DNA from: Escherichia coli
GTDB lineage: Bacteria; Pseudomonadota; Gammaproteobacteria; Enterobacterales; Enterobacteriaceae
Assembly (NCBI RefSeq): GCF_003334815.1
Contig: NZ_QOWO01000009.1
Reading direction: 5' to 3' (one strand)
Length of the DNA stretch: 64,000 nucleotides
Below, piece after piece: positions 7,531-64,000 of this stretch. Position numbers and translations under genes: made by a program. Numbering within the stretch: position 1 is the first letter of the stretch; the number at the start of each line of letters is the position of its first letter. The notes below the pieces were generated by a model that was given only the letters and a program-made list of their open reading frames with translations, did no database searches and had not been told where the DNA came from.

Positions 7531-7647
<117 letters not shown>

Positions 7648-41393: not shown

Positions 41394-42818
41394 TTACTGC
41401 ATTAACAGGTAGATGGTGCTGTCGCCGCGCTGAATGTTGAGTGCCAGCACAGACGGTTTGCTGTCGAGAACTTTACGCAGTTCAGCGATGTTTTTCACTG
41501 CCTGCTGGTTCGCGCCAATAATCACATCACCTTTCTTCAGGCCGATCTGCGCAGCCGGAGTGCCCGTTTTCACGTTGTTCACTACCACGCCCTGATCTTT
41601 GCCTTTGTTGCTCATCTCAGCGCCTTCAATGCCGTTGAAGATGGAGCTGGAATCAACCTGATTCTGGCTGCTCTGCTGCAGTTCCAGGTTCACGTTAACC
41701 TGCTTACCGTCGCGCAGTAAGCCCAGGGTCAGTTTGCTGCCTACCGGCATAGTACCCACCTGAGCACGCAGTGCGGCAAAGCTGCTGATCGGCTTACCGT
41801 TCAGTGAGGTGATCACATCACCCGCTTTAATGCCCGCTTTTGCAGCGGAGGAATTAGGCAGAACCTGGCTTACGAAAGCACCGCGCTGGGCGTCAACTTT
41901 CATCGCTTTCGCCAGTTCGGAGTTCAGCTCAGTCCCCATAATACCCAGCTCACCGCGTTTCACCTGGCCGTATTCCACCATCTGCGAGGTCAGGTTTTTC
42001 ACCATGTTACTCGGGATAGCAAAACCGATACCGATGTTGCCGCCGTCCGGTGCGAGGATCGCGGTGTTGATACCGATCAGTTCGCCGTTCAGGTTAACCA
42101 GCGCACCACCGGAGTTACCACGGTTGATCGCTGCATCGGTCTGGATGAAGTTTTCGTAGTTTTCGGCATTCAGGCCGCTACGCCCCAGCGCAGAGACAAT
42201 CCCGGAAGTTACCGTCTCGCCCAGACCAAACGGGTTACCAATCGCTACGGTGTAATCACCCACGCGCAGTGCATCAGAATCCGCCATCTTAATTGCGGTC
42301 AGGTTTTTCGGGTTCTGGATTTGGATCAGCGCGATATCAGAGCGCGGATCTTTGCCAACCATCTTCGCGTCGAACTTACGGCCATCGCTCAGTTGAACTT
42401 TAATGACCGTCGCGTTATCAACAACGTGGTTGTTGGTGACGACATAGCCTTTATCGGCATCAATGATGACGCCGGAACCCAGCGCCATGAATTTCTGTTG
42501 CTGGCCGCCACCATTACCGCCCTGGCCACCCTGGCAGAACGGAGAGCTCTGGAACGGAGAACCTTCCTGGCAGAACGGAGAATCATCACCGAAGAACTGC
42601 TGGAAATTACGCGGCATACGCGGCGTATTAACGGTTGTGCTACCTTCTACGTTAATGCTGACCACTGAAGGCATCACCTTTTCGAGCATCGGTGCAAGGC
42701 TTGGCATCTGCTGGGCTGTCGTTGCTGAAGAAGTCTCAGCCGCCGTTGCAGAGAGCGGAGATAACGCCAAACCTAAACTCAGAGCCAGTGCACTCAGTGC
42801 TAATGTGGTTTTTTTCAT
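41394..42818 (-). CDS. degP: Periplasmic serine endoprotease and chaperone DegP (HtrA)
   Basis: 474 aa; signal peptide, catalytic GNSGGAL motif, two PDZ domains. Confidence 0.96.
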   Translation of the reverse strand: MKKTTLALSALALSLGLALSPLSATAAETSSATTAQQMPSLAPMLEKVMPSVVSINVEGSTTVNTPRMPRNFQQFFGDDSPFCQEGSPFQSSPFCQGGQGGNGGGQQQKFMALGSGVIIDADKGYVVTNNHVVDNATVIKVQLSDGRKFDAKMVGKDPRSDIALIQIQNPKNLTAIKMADSDALRVGDYTVAIGNPFGLGETVTSGIVSALGRSGLNAENYENFIQTDAAINRGNSGGALVNLNGELIGINTAILAPDGGNIGIGFAIPSNMVKNLTSQMVEYGQVKRGELGIMGTELNSELAKAMKVDAQRGAFVSQVLPNSSAAKAGIKAGDVITSLNGKPISSFAALRAQVGTMPVGSKLTLGLLRDGKQVNVNLELQQSSQNQVDSSSIFNGIEGAEMSNKGKDQGVVVNNVKTGTPAAQIGLKKGDVIIGANQQAVKNIAELRKVLDSKPSVLALNIQRGDSTIYLLMQ

Positions 42819-42862
42819 GTATTTCAGTCTCGATTAACAGATAACGCAAAATTGCTGTGTTC

Positions 42863-56437: not shown

Positions 56438-58972
56438 TTAATTACTACCAAACATATCCTTGATCCAACCGGCTACACCGTCGCTGTCTTTCTGCTCTTG
56501 CTGAGCAGGTTGCTGTTGCGGCTGTTGCTGCGGCTGAGAAGACTGATCAAACGGATTGCCTGACGGCTGCTGCTGCATCTCGCTCTGCTGGCACAGCGAT
56601 TGCGGATCGCTGGTCCAGACCGGCAAGATACGCATGCCACCGCTGCAAACAAAGTTGCCGTCGTAGTCCACGCCCATATCTGCAATATCTTCTGGCGGAA
56701 CAAGATTCAGCGGCGTTGGCGTCTGGTTAGCCAGATAACGCTGATAAATCGACATTGCCCCGCTGGCACCATACAGTTTGGTCGGCTGGTTGTTATCACG
56801 GCCGACCCAGGTGATGGTCACCGTGCTGCCGTCAATGCCCGCAAACCAGGTATCTACGTTATTGTTGGTAGTCCCTGTTTTCCCTGCCAGATGCAGGTTC
56901 GGGTATTTCGCCCCAAGCTGACGACCCGTACCGCGTTGTACCACCTGCTGCATGGTCCATAGTGTCAGATACGCCGCCTGCGCCGGAACAGCGCGTTCCG
57001 CCTGCGGGAAGCTCTGATACAGCACTTTGCCATCTTCCGCGATTACCGAACGCAGCGCAGAAAGCGGTGCACGGTTACCACCGCTGGCGATGGTCTGGAA
57101 TGCCTGCGCCACTTCGATTGGCGTTAAGTTCAACGCCCCCAGCAGCATTGCCGGAACCGGATGCAACTGATCTTTCGGTACGCCCAGTTTAATCCAGGTC
57201 TCCGTAACCGCAGGCAGCCCCAGCGCCATCCCCAGATTTACCGTCGGCACGTTCATCGAACGGGTCAACGCATCCACCAGCATCACTCTGCCGCTTTCGC
57301 TATAACGACGGTCATCATTCTGCGGTGACCAGACCTGGCCATTCGGCTGACGCAGCGCAATTGGCGCATCCGCAATCCACGTATTCAGACGATAGATTTT
57401 CGGCTGGCTTAAGGCCGTCAGATAAGTCGCTGGTTTTGCAAGGGAACCAATCGAACGACGCGCCTGCATCGCACGGTTGTAGCCCGCAAATTGCGGCTCA
57501 GAACCTCCGACCATCGCACGAACTTCACCACTAAAGCGGTCGACGACCACAATCGCAGTTTCAAGATCGCTCAACTTACGCTGTTTCTTCAGTGCCGGAA
57601 TGCCTTCCACGGCGGCTTTTTCTGCCGCGTCCTGGGCCACCGAGTCAAAGGTAGTGAAGATCTTCACGCCGGAGAGATCTTTTACCTTATCGCCCAGTTT
57701 TGCCTGCAGCTCCTGACGCACCAGTTGCATAAAGGCTGGCTGAGGAGAGATCACCCCACCGCGCGGCTGAACCCCCAGCGGACGGGCACTCAACATGTCA
57801 TAGAGTTCTTGATCAATAATCTGTTGCTGTTGCAGCAGACGCAGCACCAGATTACGTCGCTCCAGCGCCAGTTTTGGGTTACGCCACGGGTTGTAGATGG
57901 ACGCCCCTTTCACCATACCGACTAACAGCGCCTGCTGGTCGAGGCTTAGCTCTTCTACCGGGCGACCAAAGTAATACAAGCTTGCCAGCGGGAAGCCGCG
58001 GATTTCGTTGTCGCCGCTCTGACCGAGATACACCTCGTTCATATACAGCTCAAGAATACGGTCTTTGCTGTAACGCGCGTCCATGATCAGCGCCATGTAA
58101 GCTTCGTTCGCTTTACGCCAGTAAGAACGCTCGCTGGAGAGGAACAGGTTTTTCACCAGCTGTTGCGTCAGCGTACTCGCACCCTGTACCGTGCGTCCGG
58201 CGGTCAGGTTTGCCAGCACCGCACGTCCGATTGAGTAGAGACTGATTCCATCATGCTCGTAAAAATGACGGTCTTCTGTCGCCAGCAAAGTATCCACCAG
58301 CAAATCCGGGAAACCACTGCGCGGCACAAACAGACGCTGCTCACCGTTTGGCGAAGAGATCATGGTGATCAGACGCGGATCAAGACGGAAGAAACCGAAC
58401 TGACGGTTGTTCTCCATATTGACGATCGTCGCCAGATGATCGCCATCAAAGGTCAGACGCGCGCGCACCTGTCCTTCTTTACTGTCCGGGAAATCAAACG
58501 GACGGCGAATCATCTCAATGCTGTTGGCCTGCACGGTAAATTCGCCAGGACGGGTCATTTTCGACACCTGACGATACTGGGTCGCCTCCAGCAGCTTCAC
58601 CATCTCGTTCTTGCTGATGGTCATGTCTGGCTCAAGATTGACCATTCGGCCATAAACTGCCGCAGGCAGTTGCCAGACCTTGCCATCAATACGGCTACGA
58701 ATTTTTTGATCGAGATAAACGCCGTAAATGGCGATCAGCACGGCAAAAACGATAGCCAGTTTTAGCAGTAGCCATAGCCAGCCGCGTTTGCCACGAGGCT
58801 TACGCCCTTTGCCTTTGCCCTTACCTTTGCGCGGCATCGGTTCTTCATCCTCATAGTCATCATAATCGTCGTAATCATCGTCATCTTCGTAACGACGACG
58901 GCTTACCTTTTGTTTGACCGGACGCGTCGGTTTCCCTTTGCGTCCAATTGGCTCGCGGTCATTCCCGGCCAT
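56438..58972 (-). CDS. mrcB: Penicillin-binding protein 1B (bifunctional glycosyltransferase/transpeptidase)
   Basis: 844 aa from [18 protein letters not shown]; acidic DDYDDYED stretch, transmembrane anchor, C-terminal Q/P-rich tail; the track ORF is extended by 5 codons. Confidence 0.95.
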
Positions 58973-59070
58973 GCTTTTTCTCCGCAATATTCAGGCGCAA
59001 AAGCCCGATTTTCTGTTCTTCTGTTACAAGACAGAAGAAGATATCTCTCAAAATTTGTGCTCGATCGGTC

Positions 59071-59155
59071 CCCTCTCCCTTGAGGGAGAGGGTTAGGGTG
59101 AGGGTGAACGTGCGCGCTGATGCCCTCACCCCGGCCCTCTCCCACAGGGAGAGGG
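59071..59155. repeat. GC-rich triple-hairpin palindromic repeat in the hrpB-mrcB spacer
   Basis: Three consecutive inverted repeats with related arms: CCCTCTCCC-TTGA-GGGAGAGGG (59071-59092), GGGTGAGGG-(18 nt)-CCCTCACCC (59096-59131), CCCTCTCCC-ACA-GGGAGAGGG (59135-59155). It resembles E. coli intergenic repeat families; the exact family was not determined. Confidence 0.7.
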
Positions 59156-59167
59156 AGAAAACCAACC

Positions 59168-61597
59168 TTACGAATACTTTTTCGTCCGTCGCGTCGGTGC
59201 AGTATTTGCCGGGTCGTCCGGCCAGACATGTTTGGGATAACGCCCTTTCATCTCTTTTTGCACCTCACGGTACGCTCCTTTCCAGAAGGCGCTCAAATCT
59301 CGTGTGATTTGTAATGGCCTTTGGGCAGGTGAAAGCAACTCCAGCACCAGCGGCACGCGCCCCTGGGCGATCGTCGGATTGGTGGCCTCGCCAAACATCT
59401 CTTGCATTCTCACCGCCAGCGCGGGCGGGTTATCTTCATGATAACGAATGGCGATCCGGCTTCCCGTCGGCACAGTGTAATGCGCAGGCAATTCACTATC
59501 CAGACGTTGCTGCATTCCCCAATCAAGTAATCCGCGTAGTGCCTGATAAATGTCGAGTGATTTCAGGCCGCGTAGTGAATGTACGCCAGTCATATGTGGC
59601 AGCAGCCACGTTTCCAGCGCTGCCAATAAACTTTCATCATCAACCGCTGGCCAGTCATATTCCGGCAACCACTTTGCGGCGCATAACAAACGCAAGCGTA
59701 GCTGTTCCGCTTCCGCCGTCCAGTTGAGCACGCTTAAACCTTTATCACGGATGCCATTAAGCATCGCCTGATGCAACTCGTCTTCTGACGGTTTCGCCAG
59801 CGGCTGCACTTTCACCGTCAACTGACCGATTTGTAGCCGACGCCAGGCTTTCAGCGTACCTTGCGCGTCATCCCACTCCACAGTGTCAGACTGCTGTACC
59901 AGCTGCGGGCAGCGTTGTACTAACTCATCAATATCGACCAGCAGCGCCAGTAAAATCCGCGCATCCGGCGAGGCGCTGCCCTGCAATAATAACGGTGCGA
60001 TCAACCATTCGTGGCGGCTTAGCGCGTCGTTGGCATCGAGCATCGCTCCCATGCCGTTTGCCAGTTGATAGCGTCCATCTTGCCCACGGCGACGAGCAAT
60101 GCGATCGGCAAACGCCCCGGCAAGTAGCGGCGCGATAAGCGAACTGTCTGCCTCACCGCCACGTACGTTTAAGCGTTTTAACAGTTGCTGACTACGTTGC
60201 TGCCAGGCTGGTTGATTGCGCGAAAACGCCACGCCCAGGTCACTATTGCCCATCCGTGGCGGCTCTTCGAGAATGGCGGCAATTTTTGCCGCGGTAGCAG
60301 CTTCGTCGTCGTTCTTCGCGCTAACCAGCATTGCCGCTAAACGCGGATCGTTACCCAGCGCTGCCATTTTTTGCCCTTGCGCACTAAGCCGTTCACCCTC
60401 CAGTGCCCCCAGCATTTGTAACAGACGTTTCGCGGCCAGTAGATTCACTACTGGCGGTTGATCCAGCCAGCTCATCTGCGCCGGATCGCTGCATCCCCAT
60501 TGCAGTAATTCCATCAGCAAACCGGAAAGATCGCTTTGTAAGATCTCCGGTTCACTTTGCGCCGCGGCGCGTTCTGCTTGTTCTTTGGCGATTAAATGCA
60601 GGCTGATACCCGGCTCCAGACGCCCGGCGCGCCCGGCACGCTGCGTCATGGATGCCTGGCTAACGCGTTGAGTAATCAGTCGCGTAAGCCCCGTGCGCGG
60701 ATCAAAACGCGCCACACGCTCCTGGGCACAATCCACCACCAGACGAATACCTTCAATGGTTAAACTGGTTTCAGCAATATTGGTCGCCAGCACCACTTTG
60801 CGCATCCCTTGCGGTGCCGGGAGGATCGCTTTTCGCTGATCGTTCAGCGACAACGCGCCATACAGCGGGCAGAGCAATACATCACTGCCGATGCGCGAAG
60901 CCAGTTGTTCCTGCACACGCTGAATTTCTCCGACGCCAGGTAAAAATAACAGTAATGATCCGCTTTCCTGACGCAGCATTTCAGCGGTGGCTACCGCAAC
61001 GGCATCGTCAAAACGCTGATGCGCGGGCAGCGGTAAATAACGGCGTTCAACCGGAAACGAGCGCCCTTCTGAGATGACGACAGGCGCTTCTGGCAGCATT
61101 TGCTGCAAGCGGTCGTTGTCCAGGGTAGCCGACATAATCAGCAGTTTAAGGTCATCACGCAGACCTTGTTGCACATCGAGTAACAGCGCCAACGCCAAAT
61201 CCGCCTGCAAGCTGCGCTCATGAAATTCATCAAGGATCACCAGTCCAACACCGCTCAGTTCCGGGTCACGCTGGATCATGCGCGTCAGCACGCCTTCGGT
61301 AACCACTTCCAGGCGGGTATTCGGCCCGACGCAGTTTTGCGCACGCATCCGGTAGCCAACGGTATCGCCTGGCTTTTCGTTAAGCAGCTCCGCCAGCCGT
61401 TGCGCGACGTTACGCGCCGCCAGACGACGCGGCTCCAGCAGGATAATTTTCCCGTTAATGCCGGGATGCGCCAGCAGTTGCAGCGGCAGCCAGGTTGATT
61501 TCCCGGCCCCGGTCGGCGCACTTAATAATACCTGCGGCGCACAATCGAGAGCGGTAAGTAATTCAGGTAAGACGGCAGCAACGGGCAACGACGACAC
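59168..61597 (-). CDS. hrpB: ATP-dependent DEAH-box RNA helicase HrpB
   Basis: About 809 aa if translation starts at the GTG at 61597 (…SSLPVAAVLPELLTALD); the track ORF is 15 codons longer; Walker A GAGKST and DEFH motifs are present. Confidence 0.88.
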   Translation of the reverse strand: MSSLPVAAVLPELLTALDCAPQVLLSAPTGAGKSTWLPLQLLAHPGINGKIILLEPRRLAARNVAQRLAELLNEKPGDTVGYRMRAQNCVGPNTRLEVVTEGVLTRMIQRDPELSGVGLVILDEFHERSLQADLALALLLDVQQGLRDDLKLLIMSATLDNDRLQQMLPEAPVVISEGRSFPVERRYLPLPAHQRFDDAVAVATAEMLRQESGSLLLFLPGVGEIQRVQEQLASRIGSDVLLCPLYGALSLNDQRKAILPAPQGMRKVVLATNIAETSLTIEGIRLVVDCAQERVARFDPRTGLTRLITQRVSQASMTQRAGRAGRLEPGISLHLIAKEQAERAAAQSEPEILQSDLSGLLMELLQWGCSDPAQMSWLDQPPVVNLLAAKRLLQMLGALEGERLSAQGQKMAALGNDPRLAAMLVSAKNDDEAATAAKIAAILEEPPRMGNSDLGVAFSRNQPAWQQRSQQLLKRLNVRGGEADSSLIAPLLAGAFADRIARRRGQDGRYQLANGMGAMLDANDALSRHEWLIAPLLLQGSASPDARILLALLVDIDELVQRCPQLVQQSDTVEWDDAQGTLKAWRRLQIGQLTVKVQPLAKPSEDELHQAMLNGIRDKGLSVLNWTAEAEQLRLRLLCAAKWLPEYDWPAVDDESLLAALETWLLPHMTGVHSLRGLKSLDIYQALRGLLDWGMQQRLDSELPAHYTVPTGSRIAIRYHEDNPPALAVRMQEMFGEATNPTIAQGRVPLVLELLSPAQRPLQITRDLSAFWKGAYREVQKEMKGRYPKHVWPDDPANTAPTRRTKKYS

Positions 61598-61670
61598 AAA
61601 ACGCTCCAGAGGGTTAACATTCTTCGCGCCACATTGTAGCATCGCGGTAATTCATAACCGAGTGCCTCAC

Positions 61671-62920
<1,250 letters not shown>

Positions 62921-63097
62921 TAAAGTAAGTAACTGGTTAATTTACATTCTGGTCGCGTGCGCAAATACGCTTTTCCTCACACAGTTGTCAAGTGTTACGT
63001 TTAGATAATTGCTATCCGGAAAAGCATCTGCTATTTATAGCGGCCTCATTTTTCCCCCGAACATGGGGATCGATAGTGCGTGTTAAGGAGAAGCAAC

Positions 63098-63553
63098 ATG
63101 CAAGAAGGGCAAAACCGTAAAACATCGTCCCTGAGTATTCTCGCCATCGCTGGGGTGGAACCATATCAGGAGAAGCCGGGCGAAGAGTATATGAATGAAG
63201 CCCAGCTGGCGCACTTCCGTCGTATTCTGGAAGCATGGCGTAATCAACTCAGGGATGAAGTCGATCGCACCGTTACACATATGCAGGATGAAGCAGCCAA
63301 CTTCCCGGACCCGGTAGACCGTGCAGCCCAGGAAGAAGAGTTCAGCCTCGAACTGCGTAACCGCGATCGCGAGCGTAAGCTGATCAAAAAGATCGAGAAG
63401 ACGCTGAAAAAAGTGGAAGACGAAGATTTCGGCTACTGTGAATCCTGCGGTGTTGAAATTGGTATTCGCCGTCTGGAAGCGCGCCCGACAGCCGATCTGT
63501 GCATCGACTGCAAAACGCTGGCTGAAATTCGCGAAAAACAGATGGCTGGCTAA
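63098..63553 (+). CDS. dksA: RNA polymerase-binding transcription factor DksA
   Basis: 151 aa from [19 protein letters not shown]; C4 zinc finger CESCGVEI…CIDC; the track ORF is extended by 6 codons. Confidence 0.95.
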
Positions 63554-63581
63554 TTACAGCCGTTCCATCACGTTTACCACA

Positions 63582-63609
63582 GGCGGGAAATGCTCCCGCC
63601 TTATTTTTT
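63582..63609 (+). terminator. Intrinsic terminator downstream of dksA, 10 nt before the gluQ start
   Basis: GGCGGGA-AATGC-TCCCGCC followed by TTATTTTTTG. Confidence 0.65.
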
Positions 63610-63619
63610 GTTCAAAGAG

Positions 63620-64000
63620 ATGACAGACACACAGTATATTGGCCGCTTCGCCCCCTCTCCTTCCGGCGAGCTTCATTTTGGCTCTCTGATCGCCGCGCTC
63701 GGCAGCTATTTGCAGGCTCGCGCCCGGCAAGGTCGCTGGCTGGTACGCATAGAAGATATCGACCCGCCTCGTGAAGTTCCCGGTGCCGCAGAAACTATCC
63801 TGCGCCAGCTGGAACATTACGGTCTGCACTGGGACGGCGATGTTCTCTGGCAATCGCAACGTCACGACGCCTATCGTGAAGCACTCGCCTGGTTACATGA
63901 ACAAGGACTAAGTTATTACTGCACCTGTACGCGTGCGCGTATTCAAAGCATTGGCGGTATTTACGACGGTCATTGCCGGGTGTTGCATCATGGACCAGAC
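63620..64000 (+). CDS. gluQ: Glutamyl-queuosine tRNA(Asp) synthetase, 5' part only (truncated by the window end)
   Basis: ORF beginning [23 protein letters not shown] (class I aaRS HIGH-like motif); it runs off the end of the window; the overlapping track ORF on the other strand is a shadow. Confidence 0.85.

Follow-up and report, generated by a model that had tools for sequence, protein, structure and literature searches.

The dksA terminator of Escherichia coli as a probable leaky internal terminator upstream of gluQ

In Escherichia coli the gene gluQ begins shortly after a strong hairpin that follows dksA. This arrangement raises the question of how gluQ is transcribed and translated, and of whether the hairpin does more than end the dksA mRNA. 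We analyzed the locus at the end of a 64,000-nucleotide stretch of E. coli DNA (from here on the window). An earlier reading of the same DNA, made from the sequence only, had proposed that gluQ depends on readthrough from dksA, that the crowded spacer leaves no room for an independent promoter or a conventional Shine-Dalgarno (SD) spacing, and that the terminator RNA might modulate initiation of gluQ translation. The features of the locus are collected in Table 1. The DksA assignment lies above the NCBIfam cut-off of 289 bits for NF008045. The gluQ product is the tRNA glutamyl-Q34 synthetase GluQRS, and the 126 residues encoded within the window align with positions 9-134 of the NCBIfam profile; sfsA, upstream of dksA, was confirmed by NCBIfam as well. 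Positions 58000-64000 (6 kb) match several E. coli chromosomes with 100.0% identity, K-12 MG1655 has exactly the same dksA-gluQ spacer, and the 61-mer 63570-63630 is found unchanged in 4887 of 5425 complete E. coli genomes.

Table 1. Features of the dksA-gluQ junction, in window coordinates.
Feature	Position	Strand	Remarks
dksA Shine-Dalgarno sequence	63085-63090		AAGGAG; strong
dksA coding sequence	63098..63553	+	151 aa; NCBIfam equivalog NF008045, 346 bits
dksA stop codon	63551-63553		TAA
dksA stop-to-hairpin spacer	63554..63580	+	27 nt; varies between genera
Terminator hairpin	63581..63601	+	8 bp, 6 G-C pairs, -14.5 kcal/mol
Hairpin 5' arm	63581-63588	+	AGGCGGGA
Hairpin loop	63589-63593	+	AATGC
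In-frame loop ATG	63590..63592	+	gluQ start in the K-12 RefSeq model (308 aa)
Hairpin 3' arm	63594-63601	+	TCCCGCCT
U tract	63602..63609	+	UAUUUUUU; directly 3' of the stem, then GUU
Pre-gluQ spacer	63610..63619	+	10 nt, GTTCAAAGAG; without functional Shine-Dalgarno sequence
gluQ, first 127 codons	63620..64000	+	NCBIfam GluQRS models; gene exceeds the window end

The hairpin reads AGGCGGGA / AATGC / TCCCGCCU and is perfectly paired. It is followed by the T-rich run TATTTTTT (as DNA), and the ten nucleotides GUUCAAAGAG separate this run from the gluQ ATG. The positions that the sequence-only reading had assigned to the hairpin, to the T run (ending at 63609) and to the gluQ ATG (63620) all hold in the sequence. 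Its stem, GGCGGGA-AATGC-TCCCGCC, was correct for the inner 7 bp and fell short of the full 8 bp, and it had omitted the second in-frame ATG within the hairpin loop. The energy given in Table 1 is that of the isolated hairpin, which a consensus scan calls a terminator. The G+C-rich stem, the 5-nt loop and the adjoining U-rich tract are the features of an intrinsic terminator. With strict settings (a stem of 7 bp or more, 5 or more GC pairs and 6 or more T in 8), we counted nine such motifs on both strands of the 64-kb window, compared to 0.53 +/- 0.67 in 30 dinucleotide shuffles, and terminator motifs thus occur more often than expected by chance. The stem is not followed by a T run on the minus strand, and the terminator is therefore unidirectional. 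The hairpin was also retained in the minimum free energy fold of its 241-nt context. A minus-strand terminator-like site of 5 bp at 63561-63544 was rejected; it overlaps the dksA stop, lies within chance expectation and is not conserved in a divergent genome.

Direct experimental evidence on this element has been published. Caballero et al. (2012; BMC Microbiol 12:226, PMC3542578) studied the orthologous dksA/gluQ-rs locus of Shigella flexneri. There, an RT-PCR product covering both genes revealed co-transcription, a promoterless lacZ fusion containing the dksA coding region, the spacer and the gluQ-rs start (pVCDT) gave baseline activity, and gluQ-rs has no separate promoter (PMC3542578). A lacZ fusion ending at the dksA stop was 10-fold more active than the fusion with the spacer, and point mutations in the stem, for which -14.7 kcal/mol was published, led to a more than 2-fold increase in reporter activity (PMC3542578). 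In these reporters, removal of the whole region thus had a 10-fold effect and mutation of the stem an effect of at least 2-fold; this gap suggests that something besides the stem may contribute. These reporter experiments and the N-terminal sequencing described below were performed in S. flexneri, some of them on multicopy plasmids, and not in the E. coli strain analyzed here. The hosts differ, but the S. flexneri terminator is the same orthologous element: the published description matches our hairpin, with an ATG in the loop and a second in-frame ATG 27 nt on, the stability is nearly the same (-14.7 versus -14.5 kcal/mol in the window), and the N-terminus of the gene product is equal.

Transcriptome maps of E. 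coli K-12 lead to the same picture. By RNA-seq, Conway et al. (2014; PMC4161252) described a ligT-sfsA-dksA-yadB-pcnB-folK operon in which an internal promoter and an internal terminator generate a dksA-specific transcription unit, while readthrough transcripts continue downstream. In the Term-seq data of Adams et al. (2021; PMC7815308) a K-12 3' end at 160097(-) is listed with exactly this hairpin sequence. Converted to window coordinates (63553 + (160149 - K-12 coordinate)), this 3' end falls on 63605, inside the U tract. Its mean count was 3,097,035 in LB at OD 0.4, which, in the part of the Term-seq table available to us, is far above nearly all other 3' ends (PMC7815308). Three supplementary entries exist for this end, consistent with one per growth condition (PMC7815308). 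It was rated not Rho-dependent (Rho score 1.16) and received an intrinsic-terminator score of 7.47 (PMC7815308). DirectRNA-seq coverage upstream and downstream was 250/62 without and 250/72 with bicyclomycin (PMC7815308), and the 62/250 ratio, which stems from 800-nt windows, gives a rough figure for readthrough. The K-12 terminator of both studies (PMC4161252, PMC7815308) is identical to ours in sequence and position, is Rho-independent and is read through into the downstream genes; neither paper discusses translation of gluQ.

A dependence of gluQ on transcription from dksA across a real terminator, as proposed earlier, is therefore borne out by the S. flexneri RT-PCR and fusions and by the Term-seq and RNA-seq data of K-12. 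Our own promoter scans are in line with this. Consensus scans inside dksA revealed no sigma-70-like or sigma-E-like promoter able to serve the ATG at 63620; the best sigma-70-like site matched 6/12 positions and the best sigma-E-like site 8/12. A predicted sigma-24 site for gluQ is reportedly listed in RegulonDB (PMC3542578); with the sigma-E-like scan inside dksA we did not locate a convincing one. A sigma-70-like 9/12 match at 63611-63640 was discarded, as transcription from it would begin past the ATG and its -10 element consists of Tyr-Ile codons. The sequence-only reading had named as its refutation an independent gluQ promoter inside dksA combined with complete termination at the hairpin. 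This refutation is not sound, since any promoter located in dksA would also be upstream of the terminator.

We consider it very probable that the element is the Rho-independent terminator of dksA and, at the same time, a leaky internal terminator of a dksA-gluQ operon. Transcripts would originate from the dksA promoters and from others further upstream. The majority of RNA polymerases would release their RNA at the hairpin and U tract, yielding an abundant monocistronic dksA mRNA that ends around 63605. The remaining minority, which we infer to be of the order of 10-25% from the 10-fold difference between the Shigella fusions and the 62/250 coverage ratio in K-12, both rough, would read through and be the sole source of gluQ mRNA. 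On these transcripts gluQ would be translated from the SD-less ATG at 63620 within an A/U-rich, weakly structured leader. Such SD-independent initiation might be helped by the A/U-rich leader, perhaps through ribosomal protein S1, or by codons 2-5, which are CA-rich and unstructured. With partial termination in series with a poor ribosome-binding site, GluQRS would be kept far below DksA and its synthesis tied to dksA transcription. Co-transcription, the lack of a separate promoter, the reporter increases, the position of the 3' end, Rho independence and the start codon are all published, and both the observation and its main interpretation were already established in the literature and are not new. 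What is added here is the conservation of the hairpin in 74 genomes and of the SD-less start in 71 of them, together with the results on crowding, on a possible switch, on accessibility of the start and on the K-12 gene model of gluQ.

To follow the arrangement across gammaproteobacteria, a DksA scan provided 80 loci from Enterobacterales, Vibrionales and Shewanella, which together with the window make 81 sequences. In 75 of these gluQ follows dksA. No gluQ was found by tblastn downstream of dksA in five loci (L056, L063, L065, L070 and L074), which belong to Providencia vermicola DSM 17385, Morganella psychrotolerans, two insect-symbiont Pantoea and an Enterobacterales metagenome-assembled genome; another P. 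vermicola genome (L058) does have gluQ after dksA. A hairpin is present in each of the 74 analysable spacers, with a median of -18.8 kcal/mol and none weaker than -11.7 kcal/mol. Of the 57 spacers of up to 100 nt, 96% reach -14.5 kcal/mol or stronger, compared to 7% of shuffled sequences. The gluQ start lacks an SD sequence in 71 of the 74 loci, and dksA is preceded by a strong SD in 71 of 74; the 20 nt upstream of gluQ have a median A+U content of 0.60. The hairpin and the SD-less gluQ start are thus conserved well beyond Escherichia.

Within Enterobacteriaceae, an alignment of spacers from 25 genera (L005-L055) revealed where the constraint lies. The core GGCGGG/CCCGCC (63582-63587 and 63595-63600) is invariant and has no G-U variants, while identity in the remaining spacer is about 49% and its length varies. 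The segment corresponding to 63554..63580 contains no invariant column and also varies in length. Four outer or flanking pairs covary, with compensatory changes on both sides of the stem, the loops differ, and 89% of the cells are paired, compared to 51-56% in slid controls. By this comparison, the hairpin structure is maintained in evolution, and the invariance of the core points to more constraint than hairpin stability alone would require. Only 14 of the 74 loci have a canonical U tract, taken as 6 or more U in 9. Since the U tract is often absent, the conserved feature is the hairpin, rather than a textbook terminator. Hairpins without a U tract occur in Photorhabdus (L042-L045, L071), Xenorhabdus (L062), Erwinia/Pantoea (L034-L036) and Providencia (L058); they have energies of -18 to -28 kcal/mol and lie at about 1960-2020 in each locus. 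These may represent non-canonical terminators or stabilisers of the 3' end.

Which ATG starts gluQ decides whether the hairpin precedes the gene or lies within it. In the K-12 RefSeq model, gluQ (b0144) spans 159186-160112, which corresponds to a start at window position 63590 and a protein of 308 aa. Genomes of E. coli annotated with PGAP start the gene 30 nt later, at the equivalent of 63620, and predict 298 aa. Sequencing of 11 N-terminal residues of GluQ-RS from S. flexneri demonstrated translation from the second of two in-frame ATGs, the first being located in the terminator loop (PMC3542578). The window translation after the ATG at 63620 equals this sequenced N-terminus, and consequently 63620 is the second ATG and 63590 (K-12 160110-160112) the loop ATG. 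If instead the K-12 model were right, gluQ would start in the loop, the hairpin would be intragenic, and the 3' end would reflect premature ORF-internal termination or processing. The RefSeq coordinates speak for this view, as does the Term-seq entry, which files 160097(-) as "internal, +15" to gluQ, in the supplementary tables only (PMC7815308). The loop ATG is also in frame and is preceded by the SD-like GGCGGGA, whose pairing of -6.3 kcal/mol is better than that of the second start, and one NCBIfam GluQRS model has 8 additional N-terminal positions. However, both the loop ATG and its SD-like sequence are buried in the -14.5 kcal/mol stem. Furthermore, the loop ATG is confined, among the sampled genomes, to E. 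coli and E. albertii; the most divergent genome labelled E. coli (loop AATTAC) has lost it, as has E. fergusonii (PMC3542578). The ATG at the position of 63620 is shared by all 25 aligned Enterobacteriaceae spacers. Protein sequencing and this conservation pattern favor the 298-aa form, and we regard a start in the loop as very improbable. The K-12 model, with its start inside the terminator loop, is probably wrong and begins 30 nt too early. Because of this gene model the dksA terminator is catalogued as ORF-internal to gluQ, an example of how the model misleads genome-wide analyses.

With the start at 63620, the earlier statement that gluQ lacks a conventional SD sequence proved accurate. 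The anti-SD duplex within the 20 nt before the ATG reaches -1.7 kcal/mol, compared to -9.2 for dksA and -5.2 for sfsA, and the sole SD-like purines (AAGAG) directly adjoin the ATG; Caballero et al. likewise noted that the real gluQ-rs start has no obvious SD (PMC3542578). The explanation offered for this, namely that the terminator leaves no room, did not survive the comparison. In the 17 genomes with spacers above 100 nt gluQ is SD-less too, and crowding is hence not the cause; judging from these spacers, the missing SD is a conserved property of gluQ itself and not an effect of a crowded spacer. In 13 of these 17 the hairpin lies nearer to the dksA stop, which assigns it to the dksA 3' end. 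That it comes so close to the gluQ ATG in E. coli is due to a compact spacer there.

The same comparison bears on the proposal that the hairpin also controls gluQ translation, either by occluding or positioning the 30S subunit or through re-initiation by ribosomes that finish dksA. Such a role would fit the end of the hairpin 18 nt before an SD-less AUG and the confined distance between hairpin and ATG in the 57 genomes with short spacers (median 16, IQR 12-22). Moreover, a helix stacked on the terminator stem (63602-63622) is predicted between the U tract and AAGAGAUG, a segment containing the gluQ start codon, and the AUG is predicted to be unpaired with a probability of about 0.19. In a Shigella expression construct gluQ-rs was translated from the second AUG downstream of a translated pelB fragment (PMC3542578), which would also fit such a role. 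However, the pairing of the U tract with the start codon amounts to -2.1 kcal/mol only. The mean predicted accessibility from -15 to +12 was 0.47 both for the intact hairpin and after mutation of its 3' arm, and 0.49 after deletion of the hairpin, so that in these predictions the terminator hairpin by itself leaves the accessibility of the gluQ start unaltered, and the modulation of initiation suggested by the sequence-only reading finds no support. The location of the hairpin near the dksA stop, away from the SD-less gluQ start, in most long spacers also argues against such control, as does the lack of sequence conservation in the spacer, and the published fusions are all transcriptional. We therefore judge a role of the hairpin in gluQ translation to be improbable.

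Another possibility is that the terminator is conditional, with a trans-acting factor altering readthrough with growth phase or stress, so that the hairpin acts as a switch rather than a fixed valve. Candidate factors would be a protein, Hfq with an sRNA, a cold-shock-type antiterminator, or DksA/ppGpp acting on elongation. In stationary phase the intergenic RT-PCR amplicon of S. flexneri increased 20-fold, while the dksA and gluQ-rs amplicons increased 1.3-fold (PMC3542578), and the authors raised a riboswitch-like or protein-binding role (PMC3542578). A constitutive terminator alone does not explain this rise, and the invariance of the core, in spacers otherwise so divergent, would also suit a binding site. 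The 20-fold figure, however, comes from end-point RT-PCR. We searched for an antiterminator by computing partition functions for nascent RNAs with five different 5' ends and by scanning the 200 nt upstream for duplexes with either arm. The hairpin had a pairing probability of 0.999 with all five 5' ends, the strongest competing duplex for either arm reached -9.9 kcal/mol compared to -15.1 kcal/mol arm to arm, and no mutually exclusive fold in these 200 nt was competitive with the hairpin. Between 62000 and 64000 Rfam returned, at E values up to 1, nothing but a spurious 19-bit snoRNA match and no relevant family. In the 25 genera we found no conserved leader or ligand domain upstream of the hairpin, where neither sequence nor length of the stretch following the dksA stop is conserved; together with the missing antiterminator fold, this speaks against a riboswitch-type element, and the Shigella authors likewise found no riboswitch (PMC3542578). 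Our literature search revealed no study, beyond the papers cited here, that followed up gluQ-rs regulation, gluQ Term-seq or ribosome profiling, or an sRNA from the dksA 3' UTR. On balance a factor-controlled switch seems unlikely, although the Shigella increase, the invariant core and the genera lacking a U tract leave modest room for factor-dependent regulation.

One further reading goes beyond termination. As a hairpin within about 20 nt of an SD-less gluQ is conserved in Enterobacterales, Vibrionales and Shewanella, in many genera without a U tract, the invariant Enterobacteriaceae core might be bound by a factor that adjusts readthrough or re-initiation to stationary phase or stringent conditions. 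We consider this speculative and quite improbable. If true, it would couple the glutamyl-queuosine modification of tRNA-Asp to DksA/ppGpp physiology.

A leaky terminator between dksA and gluQ, the explanation that we prefer, has known counterparts. Terminator T1 of the rpsU-dnaG-rpoD operon is also an intrinsic terminator within an operon and lies directly upstream of the low-abundance gene dnaG, although its genes and sequences are unrelated to dksA-gluQ. The dnaG gene, like gluQ, has an unusual ribosome-binding site. T1 was cited by Caballero et al. as the closest analogue (PMC3542578). They also mention E. coli recX, for which readthrough of the recA terminator, at about 10%, is the only source of expression (PMC3542578); here too a downstream gene is fed by terminator readthrough, at an unrelated locus. 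For dksA-gluQ, the arrangement lets one set of promoters supply DksA, a global regulator made in abundance, together with the scarce tRNA-modifying enzyme GluQRS, as was established in 2012 and is visible in the K-12 transcriptome maps.

Several minor observations were made in the window. The genes dksA and gluQ share a reading frame, with the TAA alone between them, and the next 22 codons are free of stops (63551-63622). A dksA-gluQ fusion by stop-codon readthrough was nevertheless dismissed and the open frame attributed to chance, since the spacer lengths of other genera are not multiples of three. An ORF of 103 aa on the minus strand (63554-63865), antisense to gluQ, was regarded as a mechanical ORF without supporting evidence. 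A Term-seq 3' end published for K-12, 160652(-) or window position 63050, coincides with a weak hairpin, CTGCTATTTATAGCGG then CCTCATTTTT (63028-63051), in the sfsA-dksA spacer. By the numbering of PMC3542578, dksA transcription starts at about 63043, and the weak hairpin thus overlaps the dksA promoter region. Strict terminator-like motifs on both strands at 31962-31983 (AGCCGCC/GGCGGCT) suggest a bidirectional terminator between convergent genes. Finally, four Rfam families scored above their gathering thresholds in the window, all on the minus strand: CssrA sRNA at 32908-33017(-), naRNA4 at 7568-7644(-), t44 RNA at 33856-33942(-) and the HtrA 5' UTR thermometer at 42813-42858(-).
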